DNA from: Squalus acanthias
Taxonomy: Eukaryota
Reading direction: 5' to 3'
NCBI GenBank assembly: GCA_030390025.1
Contig: CM059431.1
Coordinates: forward strand, 116,066,001-116,130,000
Length of the DNA: 64,000 nt
The notes under the pieces were generated by a model, which worked only from the letters and a program-made list of their open reading frames with translations, was not told the origin of the DNA and made no database searches. This document shows positions 10,420 to 59,211 of the stretch, piece by piece (position 1 is the stretch's first letter; each line of letters opens with the position of its first letter). The position numbers and the translations under genes were made by a program.

Positions 10420-10830
10420 ATTTCCTTTGCACTCTCCCTGTACGAAGCATCTTCATTATCAAGATAGGCTAAAAGAGCTGGAACTCTACATTTTAGCGAA
10501 CCCAAGCCTCAGGGATGATCTGATCGAGGTTTATAAGATGATGAAGGGAATAGATTGTGTTTGAGTTTAGAGTTTGTTCCAATTAAATAGGTTAGGGAGG
10601 AGCAGAGGTCACAATTTTAAGTTGTGTAAGGCCAGATGTAGGTTAGATGTCAGGAAGTGGTTCTTTTTCCGAGAGAATAGTAGACCTGTGGAACAGGCTG
10701 CTGAATCGTGCAGTGCGATTCGCTGAATCCCTTAAAATTCGTCAATATCTGTTTCTGGCTGGGGCAGAGATAAACTCGTACAAAAGATAGGTACAGCATA
10801 AAATTACCAGGTCCAGAGTGATCTCCTGGA
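10420..10830 (+). mobile_element. CR1 3'-end fragment, older family
   Basis: YQDRLKELELY..LRDDLIEVYKMMKG; related to 55055-55775. Confidence 0.75.
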
Positions 10831-39830: not shown

Positions 39831-40283
39831 CAATTATATAGGGCCCTGGTGAGACCACACCTGGAGTATTGTGTACAATTTTGGTCTCCTTACCTAAGGA
39901 AGGATATACTTGCCATAGAGGGAGTGCAACGAATGTTCACCAGACTGATTGCTGGGATGGGGGGATTGTCCAATGAGGGGAGATTGAGTAGACTCGGCCT
40001 ATATTCTCTGGAGTTTAGAAGAATGAGAGGTGATCGCATTGAAACATACAAAATTCTTACAGGACTTGACAGGGTAGATGCAGGGAGGATGTTTCCCCTG
40101 GCTGGGGAGTCTAGAACCAGGGGGTCACAGTCTCAGAATAAGGGGTTGGCCATTTAGGACTGAGATGGGGAGAAATTTCTTCACTCGGAGGGTGGTGAAT
40201 CTTTGGAATTCTCTACCCCAGAGGGCTGTGGATGCTCAGTCGTTGAGTATATTCAAGACAGAGATTGCTAGATTTTTGGATAT

Positions 40284-42812
40284 GTGCATGTAACAAGGGC
40301 AATACGGTAATCATGGGGGACTTTAATCTACATATTGACTGGGCAAATCAAATTACCACTAATGGTGTGGAGGACGAATTGTTGGAATGCATGCGAGATG
40401 GTTTCCTGGATCAGTATGTGGAGGAACCAACCAGGGAATGGGCTATTCTGGATCTGGTACTGTGTAATGAGAAAGGGCTAATCAATAATCTTGTGGTAAA
40501 GGGGCCTTTAGGGACAAGTGACCATAATATGATTGAATTTTATATTAAGTTTGAGAGTGATGTAGTCCAATCTGAAACTAAGGTCTTCAATCTAAACAGA
40601 GGAAACTACAAGGGTATGAGGGGCAAGTTGGCCATGGTAGATTGGGAGACTACACTACAAGGTATGAAGGTGGACATACAATGGCTAACATTCAAGGAAA
40701 TAATGCATAATTTGCAACAAACATATATTCCTCTAGGGCATAAAAACCCAAAAGGAAAAGTGATACAACCATAGCTAACAAAAGAAATTAAAGCTGGTAT
40801 TAAGTCAAAGGAGGAAGCTTATAAAGTTGCCAGAAAAAGTGGTCAGGCTGAGGATTGGGATCTTTTTAGAAATCAGCAAAGGGGGACCAAGAAATTGATA
40901 AAGAAAGGAAAAATGGAATATGAGCACAAACTAGCGAAAAATATTAAAACGGATTGTAAAAGCTTCCATAGGTATGTGAAAAGGAAAAGACTGGCAAAGG
41001 TAAATGTAGGTCCTTTACAGTCAGAGATGGGAGAATTTATAATGGGGAATGAGGAAATGGCCGAGAAATTAAATAAATACTTTGTTTCTGTCTTCACGGA
41101 GGAAGACACAAAAAACCTCCCAGAAATACGAGAAAACCAAGGGTGTGGCGAGAATGAGGAACTTAAAGAAATTATTATTAGTTAAAAAACAGTACTAGCA
41201 AAATTAACGGGACTAAAAGTCGATAAATCGCAAGGACCGGATGACCTACATCCTAGGGTTTTGAAAGAGGTGGCCATTGGGATAGTGGACGCATTGGTTG
41301 TCATCTTCCAAAATTCTATAGATTCTGGAATGGTTCCTGCAGATTGGAGGATAGCAAATGTAACACTGCTATTTAAGAAAGGAGGGAGAGAGAAAATGGG
41401 GAACTACAGACCTGTTAGCCTCACATCAATAGTTGGGAAAATGCTGGAATCTATTATAAAGGATGCAATAACTGGGCACTTCGAAACTAATAGTAAGATT
41501 GGGCAGAGTCAACATGGATTTATGACAGGGAAATCCTGTTTGACAAACCTATTGGAGTTCTTTGAGGATGTAACTAGTGGAGTAGACAAAGGGGAACCGG
41601 TAGATGTGGTGCATTTGGATTTTCAGAAGGCCTTCGATAAGATCCCACACAAGAGGTTGGTGAACAAAATTAGGGCACATGGAATTTGGGGGTAATATAC
41701 TAGCATGGATTGAGAATTGGTTAACAGACAGAAAACAAAAGGTAGGGATAAACGGGTCTTTTTCAGGATGGCAGGCTGTGACTAGTGGGGTACCACAAGG
41801 ATCGGTGTTTGGGCCCCAGCTATTCACAATTTATATCAATGATTTGGATGAGGTGACTAAATGTAAGATTTCCAAATTTGCTGATGATACAAAGCTAGGT
41901 GGCAGTGTCATTTGCGAAGAGGATGTGAAGAGGCTTCAAGGGGATCTCGACAGGCTCAGTGAGTGGGCGAGAACATGGCAGATGGAATATAATGTGGATA
42001 AATATGAAGTTATCCACTTTGGTAGAAAAAACAGAAAGGCAGGGTATTTCCTAAATGGTGAAAGATTGAGGAATGCAGATGCTCAAAGGGACCTGGGTGT
42101 CCTTGTACATGAGTCACTGAAAGTGAATGTGGAGGTGCAGCAAGCTATTAGGAAGGCAAATGGTATGCTGGCCTTCATTACAAGAGGATTTGAGTACAGG
42201 AGTAAAGAAGTTTTACTCCAATTATATAGGGCCTTGGTGAGACCACACCTGGAGTACTGTGTACAATTTTGGTCTCCTTACCTAAGGAAGGATATACTTG
42301 CCATAGAGGGAGTGCAAAGAAGGTTCATGAGATTGATTCCTGGGATGGCGGGACTGTCGTATGAGAAGAGATTGAGTAAACTAGGCCTGTATTCCCTTGA
42401 ATTCAGAAGAATGAGGGGGGATCTCATTGAAGCATACAAAATTATTACAGGGCTTGATAGGGTGGAGGCTGAGAGAATGTTTCCCTTGGCTGGGGAGTCC
42501 AGAACCAGGGGCCACAGCCTCAGGATAAAGGGTAGGCCATTCAGGACTGAGATGAGAAGAAATTTCTTCACACAGAGGGTGGTGAATCTTTGGAATTCTC
42601 TACCCCAGAGGGCTGTGGAGGCTCAGTCATTGGGTATATTCAAAACAGAAGTCGATAGATTTCTGACTAGTAAGGGCATCAAGGGATATGGCGATAGGGC
42701 CGGTGAATGGAATTGAGGCAGAAGAGCAGCCCTGATCTCATTGAATGGCGGAGCAGGCTCGAAGGGCCAAATGGCCTACTCCTGCTCCTATTTCTTATGT
42801 TCTTATGTTCTT
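40284..42812 (+). mobile_element. CR1 LINE, EN C-terminus plus RT, few disruptions
   Basis: IMGDFN, SDHNMI, DFQKAFDK, VPQGSVFGP, KFADDTK; (TTCTTATG)n tail. Confidence 0.95.
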
Positions 42813-43629: not shown

Positions 43630-46600
43630 TTATGATATGCTTCCTACCACTGTTCTTTTTCTGAGAAGGTACCACTTCACCTTTTTCTGGGTGAAATGCA
43701 TTTGCCATCTGTTTGCCAAATCTGCTAACCTGCCGATCTGACCCTTCAATTTTTCCAACTTCTTCCTCACAATTTGCGATCATGAGTCAACTTCAATATC
43801 ATTCCTCTCGTGCCTATGTCCGAATCACTTATATAAATGTAAAACAAAAGAACTGAACGGCTGCAGGGCATTCTGAAGGGGGAGGGCGAACAGTCAGAGG
43901 TTGTGGTTCACATTGGTACCAACGACATGGGTAGAAAGAGGGATGAGGTCCTGCAACAAGAATTTAGGGAGCTAGGTAACAGATAAAAAAACAGGACCTC
44001 AAAGGTTGTAATCTCTGGATTACTCCCAGAACTACGTGCTAGCGAGTATAGGAATAGGAGGATAGAGCAGATGAATGCATGGCTAAAGAGTTGGTGCAGG
44101 AGGGAGGGCTTTAATTTCCTGGATCACTTGTTCTGCTTCTGGGGAAGGTGGGACCTGTACAAGTCGGACGGGTTGCACCTGAACCGGAACGGGACCAACA
44201 TCCTTGCGGGGAGGTTTGCTAGTACTGTTGGGGGGTGGGTTTAAACTAACTTGGCAGGGGGATGGGATACGGAGTGGAGCTATAGTAGGGAGTGATGCAC
44301 AGCCAAATATAGAGGAAAAAACAAGTCAGCCTGGACGGCAGAGCAAATATGTAACGGCACAAGGGAGTATGGCAAGGCTGGTTGGCATTTATTTTAATGC
44401 AAGGAGTCTTGCGAGTAAGGCAGATGAATTGAAGGTGTTGATGAACACATGGGAGTATGATATTGTTGCTATCACAGAGACATGGTTGAGGGGGGGGCAG
44501 GACTGGCAGCTCAATATTCCGGGGTATAGAATCTTCAGGCGAGACAGAGGGAGGTGTAAAAGAGGAGGGCGTGTCACAATATTAATCAAGGAGTCAATTA
44601 CTGCAATAAGGAGGGATGATATCTTAGCAGGTTCCTTTAATGAGGCCATATGGGTAGAACTTAAAAACAAAAAGGGGGCAAGCACTTTGCTGGGAGTGTA
44701 CTATAGGCTCCCAAACAGTCAGGGGGAGATAGAGGAACAGATATGTAGGCAAATCTCAGAGAAGTGTAGAAATAATAGGGTAATAATAGTAAGGGATTTC
44801 AACTTCCCCAATATTAACTGGGATAGTCAGAGTGTGAAAGGCTTAGAGGGTGCGGAATTCTTAAAGGGCATCCAGGAGAGCTTTTTGAGTCAGCATGTAG
44901 AAAGTCCTACAAGAGAGGGGGCGGTACTGGACCTAATTCGAGGGAATGTAGCCTGGGCAAGTGGTAGAAGGGTCAGTAGGAGAGCATTTTGGTGACATGA
45001 CGATAATTCAGTGAGATTTAAGGTAGTCATGGAAAAGGACAAAGATGGTTCTAAATTGGGGGAAGATTGTTTTTAATATGATAAGGCAGGATCTGGCCAA
45101 AGTGGACTGGGATCAGCTACTTGTAGGAAAATCCACATTAGAGCATTGGGCGTCTTTCAGAAAGGAAATAGAGAGAGTACAACGCCAACATGTTCCCGTA
45201 AAGGTCAAGGGTGGGATCAACAAGCCCAGGAAGCCCTGGATGTCAAGGGATATACAAGAATGGATTAGGAAATAAAGGGAGGCTTTTGGCAGATACAAAG
45301 GACTAAAAACAGTGGAAGCCCTAGAGGAGTATAGAAAGTGCAGGGGGTACTTAAAAAAGAAATTAGGAGAGCGAAGAGGGGGCATGAAAAAACACTGGCG
45401 GGCAAAATAAAGGAAAATCCCAAGGTGTTTTATGAGTATATTAAGGGCAAGAGGATAACCAGGGAAAGAGTAGGGCCCATTAGGGACCAAAGTGGCAATC
45501 TGTGTGTAGAGCCAGAAGATGTGGGTGAGGTTTTAAATGAATATTTTGCCTCTGTGTTCACTATGGAGAAGGATGATGTAGGCATAGAAATCAGGCAGGG
45601 GGATTGTGATATACTTGAACAAATTAGTATTGAGAGGGAGGAGGTACTAGCGGTTTTAGCGGGCTTAAAAGTGGATAAATCCACAGGCCCAGACGAGATG
45701 TATCCCAGGCTGCTGTGTGAGGCAAGGGGGGAGATTGCAGGGGCTCTGACACAAATTTTCAGAACCTCTCTGGCCACAGGGGAGGTGCTAGAGGACTGGA
45801 GAACAGCTAATGTAGTACCATTATTCAAGAAGAGTAGTAGGGATAAACCAGGGAATTACAGGCCAGTGAGCCTAACATCAGTGGTAGGGAAATTATTGGA
45901 AAAAGTTCTGAGGGACAGAATTACTTGGAGAGGCAAGGATTAATCAAGGATAGTCAGCATGGCTTTGTCAGGGGGAGATCATGTCTGACCAATTTGATTG
46001 AATTTTTCGAGAGGGTGACTAGGTGTGTGGATGAGGGTAGTGCAGTTGATGTAGTCTACATAGACTTCAGTAAGGCTTTTGACAAAGTCCCGCATGGGAG
46101 ACTGGTCAAGAAGGTAAGAGCCCATGGGATCCAGGGCAATTTGGCACATTGGATCCAAAATTGGCTTAGTGGCAGGAGGCAGAGGTTGATGGTCGAAGGT
46201 TGTTTTTGTGACTGTAAGCCTGTGTCCAGTGGTGTACCGCAGGGATCGGTGCTGGGTCCTTTGCTGTTTGTAGTGTACATTAATGATTTAGATATGAATG
46301 TAGGAGGTATAATCAGTAAGTTCGCAGATGACACAAAATTCGTGTAGTGGTACATAGCGAGGAGGGAAGCCTCAGGCTAAAGGATGATATAGATGGGTTG
46401 GTCAGATGGGCAGAACAGTGGCAAATGGAATTTAACCCTGAAAAGTGTGAGGTGATGCATTTTGGGAGGACTAACAAGGCAAGGGAATACACCATGAATG
46501 GTAGGACCCTTGGAAGGACAGAGGATCAGAGGGACCTTGGTGTGCATGTACATAGATCCCTGCAGGCAGCAGGACAGGTAGATAAGGTGGTTAAAAAGGC

Positions 46601-48080
46601 ATATGGGATACCTGCCTTCGTTAGCCGAGGCATAGAATATAAGAGCAGGGAGGTTATGATGTAGCTGTACAAAACACTAGTTAGGCCACAGCTGGAATAC
46701 TGTGTGCAGTTCTGGTCGCCACACTATAGGAAGGATCTGACTGCATTGGAGAATGTGCAGAAGAGATTCACCAGGATGTTACCTGGGCTGGAGCGCTTCA
46801 GCTATGAAGAGAGACTGGACAGGCTGGGGTTGTTTTCCTTAGAGCAGAGAAGACTGAGGGGGACCTGATTGAGGTGTACAAAATTATGTGGGCATAGATA
46901 GGGTAGATAGAAAGGAACTTTCCCCCTTAGTAGAGGGGTCAATAACCAGGGGGCAGAGTTTCATGATAAGGGGCAGGAGGTTTAGAGGGGATTTGAGGAA
47001 AAACTTTTTCACCCAGAGGGTGGTTGGAATCTGGAACTCACTGCCTGAAAGGGTGGTAGAGGCAGGAACCCTCACAACATTCAAGAAGCATTTAGATGAG
47101 CACTTGAAACGCCATAGCATACAAGGCTACGGACCAAGTGCTGGAAAATGGGATTAGAATAGACAGGGCTTGATAGCCGGTGTGGACACGATGGGCCGAA
47201 GGGCCTCTTTATGTGCTGTATAACTCTATGACTCTATGACTAACTCCCAGCACAGCTCCCTGAGCACATCACTATCCAAATCCCGCCAGTCGGGCAAACG
47301 TTCATTTACTCCTACTCTCTGTTTATAACAAGTATCTTACAACGCTTCTAAATCCATATAGGCAACATCCACTGCATTCCCTTTACCTGTACATCCTGTG
47401 ACTTCCTTGAAAAGTGCCATTAAATTAATGAAGCCTAAACTACCCTTCACAGATCCATGCAGTCACCCCAATTAGCCCATGCCTTTTTAAGTGTTCATTA
47501 GTTTAATCTCATATTATGTATTCGAGTATATGGATTTTCCGAATTTGTACTCCTAGTGCAAAGCTTTGCAAGCTGGGAGCACATATCAAGAACTTAAATG
47601 TGGAGGTCAGTAGGTCCTGGAAGATATTCCACCCATTATTTCATAAAATGTGTCCGTAGGCATTTATCTGCCACCGACTCAAGACTAATGAGCCTTTAGT
47701 TCCTAACTACTTCCTTCTCTCTTTATTGAACAGTGGTATAACAGTTGCCATTCTTCAGTCCTTTGGCATAATTACCATTTTCAAAGGTTTCAAAAAAGGA
47801 GGGATTTGAGTGATGTGGTGGCACATTCCCTCCTGGGAGAAAAGGTTCGCAAAATAAAAGGAGCTTGTGCCAATGTTTGGGTGAATAAATTGACGCATGA
47901 TGCATTTGACGCATGACATTCCTATAGTTTTTCAAAAGTTCATCTTCTGACTGACTGCAAGATTTATTCATCATGATTCATCTCAGATTTAATTGACAAT
48001 GGTCTCAGTCTCAGAAAAAATGATTAAGAAATCTTTTATAGGCTCCTGCTGATTTTTCTACCATGGTAAAATTAAAAAGC
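43630..48080 (-). mobile_element. Old antisense CR1 fragment (43630-43854 and 47242-~48080) interrupted by a younger CR1
   Basis: Antisense RT motifs (WQMHF, LRELCWE region, WRMATVIPLF) continue across the insertion. Confidence 0.6.
43855..47241 (+). mobile_element. Long CR1 LINE: ORF1 SGNH-esterase remnant, APE endonuclease and RT
   Basis: VVVHIGTND and DGLHLN (ORF1); FNARSL, AITETWL, DFNFP; KFADDTK; (ACTCTATG)n tail; apparent TSD AACT (43851-43854, 47242-47245). Confidence 0.95.
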
Positions 48081-54285: not shown

Positions 54286-54858
54286 ATCAAAAGCACAGAA
54301 ACAGGCCATTCGGCCAACAGGTCAATGCCGGTGTTTCTGCTCCACACGAGCCTCCTCCCACCCCTCCACATCTAACCACATCAACATACCTTTCATTCCT
54401 TTCTTTCGTGTGATTATCTAGCTTCCCCTTAAATGCATCTATGCTATTCACCTCAACTACTCCCTGTGGTAGTGAGTTCCACATTCTCACCACTCTCTGG
54501 GGAAAGAAGTCTTTCCTGAATTCCCTGTTGGATTTATTAGTGACTCTCTTATATTTATGGTCCCTAGTTCTGTTCGCGCCCACAAGTGGAAACATCTTCT
54601 CTAGGTCTGCCCTATCAAACTCTTTCATAATCATAAAGACCTCGCTCAGGGTACCCCTCAGTCTTCTCCTTTTGTAAAGAAAAGAGCCCAAGCCTGTTCA
54701 ATGTTTCCTGATAGGTATAACCTCTCATTTGTGGTATCACTGTGTAATTTTTTTTTGCACCTTCTCCAGTGCCTCTGTTCTTTTTATAATATGGCGACCA
54801 GAACTGCTCACAGTACTCAAAGTGTGGTCTAACCAAGGTTCTATACAATCTTAACATA
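54286..54858 (-). mobile_element. CR1 3' fragment
   Basis: LYRTLVRPHFEYCEQFWSP, FFPQRVVRMWNSLP. Confidence 0.9.
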
Positions 54859-54902
54859 AAACCTGTCCAAAATCACTGACCGTTTTTTCTGTCACTCAAC
54901 AG

Positions 54903-55054: not shown

Positions 55055-55775
55055 AGCTATATAGGTCGCTGGTCAGGCCGCACCTGAACCACTGTGCCCA
55101 GTTTTGGCCCCCCCACATGGTGGGTGAAATAGTGGCCTTCAAAATGGTCCAGAGGAGAGCACTGAGAATGACTCTTAGCTTAAAGAACCCCAGCTACTTA
55201 GATAGGCTTAAAGACCTTGGTCTATTTACTTTAGAGCAGTGTAGACTTAGAGGTGACATGATAGAGGTCTCTAAAATAATTAAAGGGCTGGATAGCATGC
55301 CTATTGAGAGATTATTTCAGTTTAACACAATGGGAAGGACCAGGGGACATGAGTTCAAACTATGTAAGAGTAGGAATAGACTGGAGGTTAGGCGGTTCTT
55401 TTTCCCTCAGAGAGTAGTGAGCCTCTGGAATACATTGCTGGCTGGTGTGATGGGTGCTGACTCTTTGTATGCCTTCAAGAGAGAGCTGGACCGGGACAAC
55501 AATCACATAATATAGAAAGTGTCTGTTGATAACGCCTGGTCCAGGTGATCTCCTGGACTGGTTTTGATCACCAGAGGGGGTCGGAGAGGAATGTTCCAAA
55601 ATATTTTTTTCCCTTATTGGCCCTGGGTTTTTTCTGTTTGCTGCCTCTCCCAGGAGATTACATGACTGCAGGGGGGACGGGGGTGAATGGGGTGGGAAGT
55701 GTCAAGTCATGATGCTCCAGCCATCATGATGTGTGGTGCAGCTTGATGGACCACCTGGTATTTTTCATTTGTTCG
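55055..55775 (+). mobile_element. CR1 3' fragment
   Basis: VQRRALRM..YLDRLKDLGLFTLE..LRGDMIEV..FFFPQRVVSLWNTL. Confidence 0.85.
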
Positions 55776-56999
55776 TATGCTCGTAATTATATTCTTCGGT
55801 ATTGTGTTGACAACCATTCTAATATTCTATGCCTTAACTGTTTAGCTTATTTTATATCATGCCACCAGATAACTATGTATCTGGCAGTCATTAAATACAT
55901 CCAGCAAAATTTCACATCACTGTACGGTAATTTCCTTTTGGGTGGGAGGGGAGGACCAATTGAAGGGAAAATGGTCCGATATAACTTATTACAAATTTAT
56001 AACTGATGTCCTCCCTGAGATAAAGGGCGATATACTAAAATTATTTTGCATAACTGCATGTTAAATTTACATCACTTTCTGAGTTCCTCAAATAATCCTC
56101 TTCTCTGTGGAATGCCATGCAGCACAGTAATTAAAATAGTGGTAATGATGTCTTGCAGTGTTAATGTTGCCTCAAGGGATGCCTTCTTAGGACACTTCTG
56201 GGGGTAATTTTTATGAGGCTGCAATCCCATCGGAAGCCTTGTCAGCAGTGCAAGCCTGTAAAATGACTCCCTGTATCTTAATGTGATGTAGAAAATGGAG
56301 GAGAATCAATTCAATTATGCATTACAAAGTACACAGTAAAAGATGATTGTCTGCAATAATGTGCATTCAATAAAATTTTCATCAAATCAGCAGAATAAGA
56401 ATAATTAGGTAACCTATATTTAAATTGGAACTGCCATTTATTTTAGAAAAGGAGTATTTTGACAGTTTTCAAATCTCTAGGGAATCAGGATAGCTCTGAT
56501 TAAAATTTTCCCCATGGTGTATGGTGTAATAGTTTAGAAACCAGATGAGAGAACCATTTTCGCTAATTCAAAAAAAGGAACTGTGAGCAATTTGTTTGGC
56601 TTTAAACACCTAATTCTTTTCTGCACAATGAAAGAATAACAAACTTGCAATACGTATTAAAGATAAATTAATTTTATTAAGTTTTCACTGCTAGTGTGTG
56701 CGCTTAATGTATTTTGTCCCTTGTGTGTCATGAACGTCTCCATTTTGATTGTCCCATGTGCTGTATTACTAAGTGAGGGAGTAGCACTGTTGATTGGCTG
56801 CACAGCCAACTGGTAAGCTGCAGGAATATAGTAGGCACGTGATAGACCTGCATCAGTGCTGGGTGTCTCTTCAGCTGGAGTTACTGTGGGCTCATTGCTT
56901 TCCGCGGCAGCCCTTGCTGTCACTTGTGCAGGGCTATGTGATGGAACAGAAATGCTGCTGTCATGCATGCAACCTGTGCTACGACATGCACGTCACTGT

Positions 57000-58586
57000 T
57001 GGATACTATTCCAGGGGGTACATTACGCGGTGGCTTCGGTGATTCTAAATCTCACCGAAGTGCGGTTACCAGAGTGGTGCCCCAAAGAGACGGAACAATT
57101 GTACCAGATCCTGTTGACAAACATGTTCAGACAATTTTACGAGTTTGATTTTGCAGAGATTGACAAGACAAGCTTGTACACCACACCACACGAAGTTTTG
57201 GGTCAGGTGGGGAGACAAAGAAGGGGTATTGTGACCGATATGTTCACCGCCTTTAATACAGGAACATCTGTGGTCAATGCTCTAGACAACGTGGAGCTGC
57301 AGACCCAGATCAATGGTTTAAAAACACAATTATAAAGCATCCTCACAAGCGAAAACAAGGTAGTAGGGTCTGAGTTACATGAGGACCAGGCCATGACGCT
57401 ACACTTAAAAGAGATTATAGCAGAACTGGAGAAGCATGCGAGAACGGTAAATGCCCTGATCAGGGAAGATCGGAACGCATCCGATCAAGCTGCGCAGAAC
57501 GAGGTGTGCGTACTATACGGGGCGTGGTTACTGGGCGAGGGCCGCAGTAATTTGGAGGATTTAAAACAAGGTTTGGTCCCGTCCTGGATAAGTAACAAAC
57601 ACCTGCAGGTGCTCCACCCTTTTCAGAACGCATTAAGCCCGTGCCAGCTCAGGCTAGCCTCAGAGGCATACCCAGTCCCCGTGGACTGCGGACGGTCAAA
57701 TCATACCATCATGGGTATAGTACTACGTATGCCGGTCTTGGGTGACACAGCAAAGCCCGCCCCGGTGTATCGGGTAGAGAACATTGGTGTCATTCAGGGG
57801 GGAGCCCACATTTGCTACACAGCGGTCCCACCTTACGTCATCCGTTGGGAGCAAATGATGACAGGTACCGATCTCTCGGGTTGTCGTGGCCAGGGAGCAC
57901 ACATAATCCTGTGTCCCCAGCACTTGAATGCCTTTTTAACACCACAATGCGGGTTCAGAACGGCTGGCGTGAAGCCCATGAATTGCACCATGGGTGCAAT
58001 GACACAAGATCATGTGCCTCCGCAGGTGGCATACATAGGGGGTGGAACATATTGCGTTACCACTGCAGCGCAACACTATCAGCATGGAAACCGCAGCCGG
58101 TGTCTGGTGAGTGACAGCAGTTTCTGTTTTAAACCCAGGGCTGAAGTTCAAGTGGCACAGCAGCGAATTGTCCCGATCCCTGAACCATCCACTGTTGATC
58201 TAACAGTGAAAGAGAATTTCACCGACTTGCAGCGATTCGTCGCGCATTTCGGATACATCATTCCCCCTCTCCCTGAACACCTCACCAAGCTTTTGAAAGC
58301 CGTCGCGGTATCGCAAAAACATTTCTACACCCTAGAACAAAAGACTGTCGAGATAGGGACAGAAATTCTAGACATTGTAATCCCACCGTGGTGGGACCTG
58401 TTCACCAATATTGAAGTGCCTTCATGGATCAGAATAGCCTCCCACATTTTAGTTGTGTGCCAAGTAATAATTGTAGTGTACCTATTGGTCGTGCACTGCA
58501 AGAGAGGCAAGCGCCTCACAAAGCAGGAGAACACAGGAGAGTGGAGAGAACGTTACGTGCACGTGCACGAGGAAAGCGCTGCGTAA
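57000..58586 (+). pseudogene. Endogenous viral envelope gene, F-type class I fusion glycoprotein, 5'-truncated, one in-frame stop (57333-57335)
   Basis: ORFs 56856-57335 and 57393-58586 are in the same frame; furin site RQRR (57213-57224), fusion-peptide-like GIVTDMFTAFNTGTSVVNAL, heptad region, Cys-rich domain, six N-X-S/T sequons, PPWW, TM IRIASHILVVCQVIIVVYLLVV, short charged tail. Confidence 0.85.
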
Positions 58587-59004
58587 ACGGCCAGGATGAC
58601 GCCGCTCCATTTTACCATGTGTATTCTTGTAATTGATTGTGAAACTTATGAATGGAAGATGGTGTGCTGCCATTGGCTCTAACTGAGTCACGTGATCCCA
58701 CAGCTCGCACGAATTCACTACGCCGCTGGGATACGCAAGCCCAGCACAGCTGATGTCTGGAACATCAAGTTCGTGCGAGCTGGATCTGAAAAAGCACAAG
58801 CGAGGTGAGAGATCGCGGGGAAGCCTTACCCCCGCGGGAACAGAGCGAGATCAATTTCTGGGCCATTGTAATTTTCCCTGGGAAATGAGGATGGCATGGA
58901 GACCCTAGATAGTTTAAGTTAAGGGAGTGTTTGGATGTGGAGAATCGGGATAATTTTGCTCACCACCACTTTTAATTGATACGATAAGCGGAGTTATTCG
59001 CATC

Positions 59005-59211
59005 AACAGGAGGGACTGTAAAATTCGCAATTATCACAAGCACGTACGAACCGAAACCCCTTACAGTAGCTGATGCCATTGTTCAAAGGTAGATTACAAA
59101 TCTCCATTACTCATGTGAGAGATGGCTGTGAATATCTGGATGTTTGAATAGCTATGCTATTCCTACTTCTACTTTACTTCATACATACTTAATAAAATTT
59201 TGCTGTGTGCA
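59005..59211 (+). mobile_element. Polypurine tract and short 3' LTR-like segment of the env-bearing element
   Basis: AACAGGAGGGA-C immediately before TGTAAAA (59017); AATAAA 59191-59196; ends in CA at 59211 where L2 sequence begins. Confidence 0.6.

Follow-up and report, generated by a model that had tools for sequence, protein, structure and literature searches.

The distal part of a 64,000-nt stretch of the Squalus acanthias genome (assembly GCA_030390025.1, contig CM059431.1, positions 116,066,001 to 116,130,000 of the forward strand; the whole stretch is hereafter called the window) contains a long reading frame that resembles a viral envelope (env) gene, which raises the question of what kind of element it came from and how much of the gene is left. 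The initial annotation, made from the letters alone, described a near-intact endogenous env with the architecture of the fusion protein (F) of paramyxoviruses and pneumoviruses, and assigned it to a lokiretrovirus-like or enveloped Gypsy-like element. The analysis presented here indicates that the locus is very probably a dead env fragment of an abundant, relatively young retroviral family whose 783-aa Env is a class I glycoprotein with a paramyxovirus-F-type body.

A 5'-truncated env fragment in the window

The plus-strand frame between positions 56835 and 58586 comprises 584 codons and is open but for one TAA (57333-57335). The env-derived part of this frame is 527 codons long (57003-58583), and the number of 416-codon open runs expected in the window from base composition is about 4e-6. 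The motifs of the encoded protein follow one another in the 5' to 3' order YAVASVILNLTEVRLPEWC, RQRR, a small-residue stretch, NEVC, IVLRMPVLG, VYRVENIG, GTDLSGC, IILCP, PPWW, an anchor, and a short tail, which confirms on the sequence both the single-TAA frame and the motif order that had been reported. The retention of CpG noted at the same time was also borne out, with an observed/expected ratio of 0.73 within 57003-58586 against 0.36 and 0.33 in the flanks.

The similarity to the family begins abruptly at 57002-57003, in tblastn with homologous proteins as well as in blastn with a full element from the same genome (copy C6). This position corresponds to residue 249 of the skate protein P0003; homologues in public protein sets have about 250 additional N-terminal residues compared with the window copy, from which about 256 N-terminal codons of the 783-codon env gene are missing. 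At the other end, the similarity to C6 extends past the env stop through the 3' untranslated region (3' UTR) and ends at 59035, about 20 nt inside the 3' long terminal repeat (LTR). Contigs of other copies carry env sequence to the left of 57002 and are unlike the window to the right of 59035. No other part of the element (pol, LTRs) was matched elsewhere in the window by blastn with the full C6 sequence. The description of the gene as near-intact thus has to be abandoned, since the copy is truncated at its 5' end by about 256 of 783 codons and stands without pol and LTRs. The region 57003-59035 is a dead internal proviral fragment that consists of the last two thirds of env and the 3' UTR, is cut at both ends, and carries one premature stop. 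The signal peptide, the promoter, and the LTR are absent from the window copy, and therefore the locus is most likely functionless.

Predicted fold of the full-length Env

The natural full-length Env was modelled with AlphaFold2 using 21 aligned sequences. The mean predicted local distance difference test score (pLDDT) was 57, and the 10-residue blocks over residues 240-300 and 420-640 scored mostly 76-92. In a Foldseek search of the PDB with this model, ranks 1 to 50 were all occupied by F proteins of paramyxoviruses and pneumoviruses, with E values from 1.4e-12 (1ztm, F of human parainfluenza virus 3) to 7e-8, exactly the kind of match that the initial annotation had expected from a structure search (paramyxovirus, respiratory syncytial virus, or human metapneumovirus F). 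Structural alignment by VIA against 48,161 chains ranked F of Newcastle disease virus first (Z 11.1, 363 residues aligned, root-mean-square deviation (rmsd) 17.6), together with F of parainfluenza virus 5 (Z 10.0), henipaviruses (within 8.3-10.0), and measles virus, human metapneumovirus, and respiratory syncytial virus (8.3-9.2); 282-363 residues were aligned across the F rows. Foamy-virus Env was found at Z 8.4 in the postfusion and 7.7 in the prefusion form, and the next entries, unrelated coiled coils, were at Z 5.5. Among the predicted structures of BFVD, the model matched mononegaviral glycoproteins, baculovirus F, F0, the Env of walleye epidermal hyperplasia virus 1 (WEHV-1; 3.4e-8), the Env of walleye dermal sarcoma virus (WDSV; 3.2e-6), and feline foamy virus Env (1e-4). 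The nearest ESM Atlas cluster, an unnamed one from chordates, had a score of 0.84, and the second, in which 19% of the members carry Baculo_F, one of 0.75; both scores are too low to count as more than a lead.

Model residue 243-245 is where the VIA alignments to F set in, paired with F residues 23-38 in eight of the ten F rows that have this start, and Env residues 1-244 are therefore an addition before an F-sized body. In full copies, the basic cleavage motif occupies residues 327-330 of 783 and is preceded by the signal peptide and by an additional domain of some 220 aa. It is followed by a small-residue, fusion-peptide-like segment and a long heptad helix, and a second helix precedes the anchor, an arrangement characteristic of F-type fusion proteins. 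The early-cleavage F2/F1 layout read from the window does not hold for the full protein; the short F2 and the early site appeared because the window copy is truncated. These models support a fold of the paramyxovirus/pneumovirus F type for the full Env rather than the surface-transmembrane (SU-TM) type of gammaretroviruses.

The N-terminal domain (about residues 80-175 of Env in full copies, L006:1474-2235) shows a Cys...Trp...D-x-G-x-Y-x-C pattern that looks immunoglobulin (Ig)-like by eye, and one Env homologue is named 'Ig-like domain-containing' in UniRef.

The proposed Env would thus consist of a signal peptide, a possibly Ig-like, presumably receptor-binding domain that adds about 220 aa at the N-terminus, an F2-like segment, the RQRR furin-type cleavage site, a fusion peptide, a long heptad repeat A (HRA) helix, beta-rich domains, heptad repeat B (HRB), and the membrane anchor. 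After cleavage by furin, the Env trimer would refold in such a way that HRA extends and HRB packs on HRA, as in F. From the F2-like segment through the furin-type site, the fusion peptide, HRA, the beta domains, and HRB to the anchor, the elements succeed one another as in paramyxovirus and pneumovirus F (PF00523), which also gave the best structural matches, and judged from the models the family Env most likely works like F; its cleavage, trimerisation, fusion activity, and receptor binding would be expected on this basis. No sequence similarity to F could be detected for the family Env, which adds the N-terminal domain, is encoded by a retrovirus, and presumably serves as its own attachment protein.

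Sequence relatives of Env

An exhaustive HMMER search returned 39 Env relatives, and the 15 examined by record came from sharks, one skate, and frogs or were unnamed. Both Chiloscyllium punctatum and Scyliorhinus torazame carry homologues of the window-family Env. A word-indexed profile search with the Env alignment (A1) gave no further distant relatives. Three gene models, named Niban 1-like, cadherin-related family member 5-like, and fbxo15 isoform X3 (P0005, P0010, and P0026), contain pieces of Env and are probably annotation chimeras with fragments of endogenous retroviruses (ERVs).

Reference retroviral genomes were taken from IMG/VR and labelled by Pfam, the gamma-type genomes by TLV_coat. 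Fifteen genomes were taken as foamy viruses, three of which were checked by Pfam (Foamy_virus_ENV, with spumavirus Gag in the one gag scanned), and the rest had 44-91% Env identity to those three. One further contig, L029 (12,708 nt), encodes a CCHC gag, pol, a 1229-aa env without a Pfam match, and a cyclin-like open reading frame (ORF); from its length and the cyclin-like ORF, it is probably a walleye epsilonretrovirus of the WDSV/WEHV type. Alignment of the A1 profile with the L029 Env by hhalign gave a probability of 95.1% and an E value of 3.1e-8 over 451 colinear columns, which run from a CP..P..G motif before F2 through the R-x-K-R site, the helices, and the central domains to the anchor. 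The same profile aligned with the 15 foamy Envs at 76.9% and E 2.1e-5 over 222 columns of the transmembrane-subunit core. A plain HMM search agreed with both results and gave the L029 Env 23 bits. By these profile comparisons, the family Env is shown to be homologous to the walleye-type epsilonretrovirus Env, and a more distant similarity to foamy-virus Env is weakly indicated.

The claim that the protein is unlike a gamma-type SU-TM was upheld: neither CX6CC nor any CC dipeptide was found in the window env fragment, and PF00429 (TLV_coat) matched neither this fragment nor any of 21 family members, although it does match the gamma-type controls. The central claim of an F-type retroviral env was likewise sustained, through the Foldseek, VIA, and BFVD matches to F and the profile homology to other F-like retroviral Envs.

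In both the family Env and the L029 Env, a large additional region stands before the F-like body and the gamma-type hallmarks are missing, and a W-rich membrane-proximal motif falls within their 451 aligned columns. The two differ in length (783 versus 1229 aa), and the family, unlike the walleye virus, has no accessory ORFs and a Pol that branches below the epsilon/gamma clade. In WDSV, gag and pol lie in one frame behind a stop, as they do in the family. The non-gamma Env of walleye epsilonretroviruses itself appears F-like by predicted structure (L029, and WDSV and WEHV-1 in BFVD). A published account (PMC9967133) sets the Env of walleye viruses apart from the gamma-type Env. No F-like reading of any epsilonretrovirus or shark ERV Env was found in the literature searched, which lay mostly outside subscription journals.

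An abundant and relatively young provirus family

The host genome was searched for full-length copies as the initial annotation had proposed, and proviruses of about 12.4 kb were found. In the 3.7 Gb searched, a skate homologue query for the Env N-terminus returned 12,735 first-look candidates, a Pol query 27,172, and the 1.6-kb window DNA 4,093; these are counts of candidates and not copy numbers, and the places scored were the best ones. Of these, 20 of 83 places scored with the skate query lay in a 789-codon open frame, and 18 of 40 scored with Pol lay in open frames of at least 1496 codons. All of the other matches scored with the window DNA (39/39) were 96-97% identical over the full length.

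Copy C6 has LTRs of 1.65 kb that are 96.8% alike and 12.4 kb apart. Its ORFs and Pfam domains comprise a CCHC gag, protease and reverse transcriptase (PR-RT; RVT_1), an RT_RNaseH tether, RNase_H, Integrase_H2C2, rve, and the 783-aa env, which ends about 390 nt before the 3' LTR, and no accessory ORFs are present. An 18-mer starting with TGG 5 nt after the 5' LTR is a candidate primer-binding site. The C6 copy is broken in gag and pol. In six of six other copies (loci L049-L054), gag and pro-pol share one frame with a single TGA between them. The genome plan would accordingly read LTR, gag (CCHC), in-frame TGA, pro-pol (PR, RT, tether, RNase H, and integrase (IN)), env, and LTR, over about 12.4 kb. 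The gag-pol TGA is followed in all six of these copies by CTA(A/G), which suggests readthrough of the stop codon; UGA-CUAG is a known leaky stop context.

The LTR pairs were 98.4-99.0% alike in five of ten copies examined, which had been picked for an open env N-terminus. Because of this similarity, and because the CpG ratio of the window copy is about twice that of its flanks, the family is regarded as relatively young. It is a very abundant, relatively young cartilaginous-fish ERV.

A variant of env was seen on contig C3 (about 64,287,000-64,314,400), where five copies about 6.4 kb apart have a 498-codon frame without the central beta-rich domains; the annotated skate protein P0003 (516 aa) has a similar internal deletion.

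Logan contigs of four out of 20 listed sequencing runs were compared with the window. In two DNA runs, the flanks had a depth of about 17-30 and the retroviral part a summed depth of 1e4-9e5. In the other two, which are of about 102 and 137 million letters and are presumed to be RNA, family contigs were present and the flanks absent, a picture that low-pass DNA of a high-copy repeat would equally give.

Selection on env was estimated from 524 codons of the window copy and five others. The pairwise ratio of nonsynonymous to synonymous substitution rates (dN/dS) was 0.09-0.26 in 15 of 15 pairs, including pairs only 2.8-3.5% apart; therefore, most differences between copies arose under purifying selection on env. 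Low env dN/dS between copies is known in other ERV families as a sign of reinfection, and the values would fit spread of the family by reinfection rather than decay after insertion.

Placement of the family by Pol

A quick LG+G4 maximum-likelihood tree was built from RT and IN (65 rows, 55 retroviral and 10 Gypsy, over 700 columns), with the 10 Gypsy rows chosen as outgroup beforehand. It was made without 13 fragmentary or chimeric proteins, the RNase H columns, class II retroviruses, the Xen1-size contig L028 (split pol), and the references for foamy-like ERVs (FLERVs). The 11 foamy viruses formed a long-stemmed clade (Shimodaira-Hasegawa-like approximate likelihood ratio test (SH-aLRT) 100), and all other retroviral rows came together (96). 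Together with sequences from frogs, the coelacanth, and turtles, the family made up a basal grade of poor resolution, which lay outside the marked branches (97 and 99) that hold the epsilon- and gamma-type genomes; L029, L022, and L027 formed a clade nested with the gamma-type genomes. The nearest Pol proteins were those of frogs, a caecilian, the coelacanth, turtles, and teleosts. In full copies env lies downstream of the integrase, and the order LTR-gag-pol-env-LTR was observed. The family is a retrovirus and not a Gypsy element, and it probably belongs to a deep fish/amphibian grade between the foamy and the epsilon/gamma viruses.

Evidence against the F-type account and alternative explanations

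Several observations weigh against the account of an F-bodied Env in an abundant young family. Neither the window fragment (E up to 10) nor the full Env had a Pfam match, and only sub-threshold noise was obtained; in particular, PF00523 (Fusion_gly) gave no match to the fragment at E up to 10 and to none of 21 family members at E up to 1. Sequence searches of the PDB, by single sequence and by profile, returned only coiled-coil noise. The N-terminal 234 residues were unmodelled (pLDDT below 40 in the full model), and the N-terminal domain folded alone gave an all-beta model that is unreliable at pLDDT 36; the matches of this region to Ig families in six proteins scanned were below the cut-off (Ig_3 E 0.0027 in P0006; V-set E 0.045 in P0036). 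Normalised to the query length, the global TM-scores to F were low, at 0.18-0.30 with an rmsd of 20-36 Å; the reason is that a single-chain model whose helices are extended was set against trimers, which occur in two conformations. The VIA Z scores of 8-11 lie modestly above the level reachable by unrelated helical models. The Pol does not group with that of L029, whose Env is the best profile match, so that either the histories of env and pol differ or the Env type is ancestral. As to the provirus family, scoring of the best places biases the intact fractions upward, and four of the ten copies examined had no LTR pair where it was expected, with only an 82-bp match in one more.

The strongest competing explanation is that the family is a foamy-like ERV of the shark/frog FLERV kind, known from pol only, and that its Env is a very divergent foamy-type protein with, for that reason, an F-like fold. 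We regard this as possible, though clearly the less favoured reading. The RT ORF scored best in the PDB with foamy PR-RT (177 and 162 bits), against 153-157 for murine leukaemia virus and xenotropic murine leukaemia virus-related virus, 116 for Ty3, and 66 for human immunodeficiency virus, and the integrase scored 116 bits with that of prototype foamy virus, which is about equal to Ty3 (113; next 41). Over the whole Pol, however, the phmmer scores with foamy viruses (280-312 bits) stayed below those with gamma/epsilon-type genomes (319-457 bits). A tree in which foamy viruses and the family lineage form one clade was not rejected by the approximately unbiased test (p 0.29), whereas the free tree, from a quick search, set the 11 foamy viruses apart from the other retroviral rows at the SH-aLRT of 96 given above. 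The family gag contains zf-CCHC and no spumavirus Gag domain, although the control foamy genomes do match spumavirus families. In foamy viruses Pol is expressed independently of Gag, whereas the family pol, as read from its sequence, stands behind an in-frame TGA in the frame it shares with gag and not behind a start of its own.

The Env evidence on this explanation is similarly divided. The hhalign probability of 77% and the VIA Z of 7.7-8.4 speak for a foamy-type Env, and an F-type fold in a retroviral Env is what foamy Env also has (8rm0/8rm1; PF03408). PF03408, however, matched neither the window fragment nor any of 21 family members, and the leader-peptide architecture of foamy Env is not seen in the family. 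The extra domain of the family precedes the F2-like segment and thus the F-like body, whereas that of foamy Env is inserted between the subunits according to PMC11468914. This source describes foamy Env as structurally F-like and proposes F as a minimal scaffold to which receptor-binding modules were added N-terminally or internally. Aiewsakun and Katzourakis (2017, PMC5512871) report that the foamy-like ERVs of sharks (CmiFLERV) and of Xenopus group with each other and that no gene but pol could be detected in them; the Pol and Env of the present family both have Xenopus relatives.

The published shark ERVs can be set beside the family by description only; they are likewise chondrichthyan and related to fish and amphibian retroviruses, and they include a shark-frog pol link. 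A cartilaginous-fish endogenous foamy virus is reportedly the subject, going by its title, of a J Virol paper of 2023. The elephant-shark ERVs (CmiERV lineages I-III) are presented in PMC4422223 as epsilonretrovirus-related, with Pol and a downstream Env homologue and without a structural reading, and 'no Gag or Env domains' is the wording of the catshark ERV-Spuma report (PMC10699275). The initial annotation was fair in remarking that little has been documented of such elements in cartilaginous fish: the reports of shark foamy-like ERVs describe nothing but pol, or no Env domain that could be recognised.

It is unlikely that the family is a lokiretrovirus, that is, a member of the sister lineage of all retroviruses with a Mononegavirales-F-like Env, as the initial annotation had proposed. 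By the published description (Wang and Han 2020, PMC7947760), on which this comparison depends, the two have a common plan of gag, pol with tether and RNase H, and env with an R-X-K/R-R site, fusion peptide, coiled coil, and transmembrane segment, and in both the Env is F-like. Lokiretroviruses are reported there from lampreys, bony fishes, amphibians, and turtles; the family has Pol relatives in such host groups (frogs, coelacanth, and turtles), and its Pol takes a near-basal position among the retroviral rows. The lokiretrovirus Env is, however, reported to match PF00523 at E 2.2e-7, in contrast to the complete lack of matches among the 21 family members, although the paper's CD-search is a different method from ours. 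In its supplement, searched by the names of species and orders, none of six chondrichthyan genomes was positive, and these include C. punctatum and S. torazame, both of which carry homologues of the window-family Env; a close Pol relative of the family comes from Pyxicephalus adspersus, which was also scored negative in that screen. No smc gene was seen in the family, but not every lokiretrovirus possesses this gene.

An enveloped Ty3/Gypsy (errantivirus-like) element with an env of the baculovirus F type, the other origin suggested at the outset, is highly improbable. One of 21 members matched Baculo_F below the cut-off (E 0.0011), and the second ESM Atlas cluster and the BFVD matches also involve baculovirus F; baculovirus F falls into the same broad class of folds, which deprives these matches of discriminating power. 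The Pol carries a dual RNase H (PF17917/PF17919 at 4-108 and PF00075 at 156-298 of the RNase H-IN ORF), and PF00075 together with an RT_RNaseH tether is the retroviral arrangement. The 10 Gypsy Pols were split from the 55 retroviral rows with full support (SH-aLRT 100), and the RT scores with retroviral RTs exceeded that with Ty3.

Domestication of env by the host, as a syncytin-like gene or a restriction factor, is equally improbable, and so is an endogenous paramyxovirus-like element of non-retroviral origin. In favour of these, the long open frame, the retained CpGs, and the homologues annotated in host genes (Niban 1-like, cadherin-related 5-like, and fbxo15) might be cited; against them, the signal peptide and the N-terminal third are missing, a premature stop is present, the locus is one of very many 96-97% identical copies, env lies between pol and LTR in full copies, and the annotated host fusions look like gene-model chimeras.

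Layout of the window copy and its surroundings

All features of the window copy lie on the plus strand. The truncated env fragment of 527 codons plus stop (57003-58586) corresponds to residues 257-783 of the 783-aa Env; it has 92.5% nt identity to the C6 copy and homologues in shark, skate, and frog. It is preceded in frame by an open stretch of 56 codons (56835-57002) with a fortuitous ATG at 56952, which lies outside the retroviral gene, as no family match was found left of 57002-57003 by tblastn or blastn. The segment 56300-57001, including this ATG, is an unrelated old repeat whose matches elsewhere are 66-89% identical.

The F2-like segment (57003-57212), the C-terminal part of the surface subunit, is predicted to form strands (residues 249-272) and then a helix (284-306) at pLDDT 85-90. 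Its sequence includes the YAVASVILNLTEVRLPEWC motif (57024-57080), an NLT sequon (57048), and a Cys (57078). The furin-type cleavage motif RQRR (57213-57224) has R-x-[KR]-R at the same column in the shark, skate, and frog homologues and aligns with RKKR of the L029 Env. The small-residue segment right after it (57225-57284) resembles a fusion peptide and coincides with the start of F1 in the fold matches, from which its putative function is taken. The long helical heptad region (HRA-like; 57285-57566), placed by the predicted helices 331-373 and 383-444 and by column conservation, ends after the conserved NEVC...YGAWLL, with NEVC at 57498. The premature TAA (57333-57335) within it is private to the window copy, and a sense codon stands there in five of five compared copies; the Logan contigs at this site were all from paralogous copies, and the allele of the window itself was not represented among them.

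The beta-rich, Cys-containing central domains (57663-58169), the equivalent of F domains I/II, are predicted as strands over residues 477-645 with block pLDDT of 60-92, mostly 76-92; they aligned structurally to F and foamy Env, and by hhalign to the core of the foamy Env transmembrane subunit. IVLRMPVLG (57717), VYRVENIG (57765), GTDLSGC (57864), and IILCP (57903) were located on the sequence of this region. The second helix (HRB-like; residues 681-712 of the model) and the membrane-proximal PPWW (about 58380) occupy 58275-58394, a region that aligned to the L029 epsilonretrovirus Env. The transmembrane anchor (58434-58493) has the highest Kyte-Doolittle 19-mer of the fragment (2.6), and it is followed by a short basic cytoplasmic tail with the natural TAA stop (58494-58586). 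The proviral 3' UTR then reaches about 20 nt into the 3' LTR (58587-59035); its part 58864-59035 equals positions 10651-10822 of the C6 element, in which the LTR starts at about 10803.

One piece of the 3' UTR (58601-58861) had no alignment to the C6 copy, and its summed contig depth in the two DNA runs was 2-9e5, against mostly 1e4-3e5 for env and about 17-30 for the unique flanks; it may be specific to one subfamily or have been amplified separately. A 1421-nt contig from another DNA sample of this organism spans the left flank (56600-57003) up to 57003 and then continues with 116 letters that found no place on the window at 95% identity, which could be a switch of the assembly graph into another copy or a structural difference at the junction.

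The surroundings of the ERV fragment are repeat-rich. Two stop-broken ORF2 remnants of long interspersed nuclear elements (LINEs), with endonuclease and RVT_1, lie on the plus strand at 40247-42716 and 44183-46664, and smaller LINE-tail-like ORFs without a Pfam match were seen at 54287-54872 (minus strand) and 55057-55515 (plus strand).

Meaning of the family

The window locus itself is an ordinary dead fragment. The family to which it belongs is best filed as an addition to a known kind, the retroviral Env of paramyxovirus-F type, and is notable for its abundance and preservation, the published shark ERVs having been compared by description only. The lokiretrovirus Env, as described in PMC7947760, is an F-type retroviral Env of this kind with hosts that include fish and amphibians. 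In earlier shark ERV surveys, pol was found and env was not recognised; the family now supplies an env whose predicted fold is F-like. Its many natural intact env genes can be used for structural and fusion studies, and it adds a deep-branching, env-intact chondrichthyan lineage to the question of where the retroviral envelope originated.

Tentatively, an F-type superfamily comprising this shark, skate, and frog Env and the walleye, foamy, and lokiretrovirus Envs might represent the ancestral retroviral envelope, with the gamma-type as a later replacement; the receptor module would be N-terminal in the present family and in the walleye virus and internal in foamy viruses. Because env has been under strong purifying selection between copies only 3% apart, the shark family would, in this scenario, have spread by reinfection, and it may have an exogenous infectious counterpart in cartilaginous fish.

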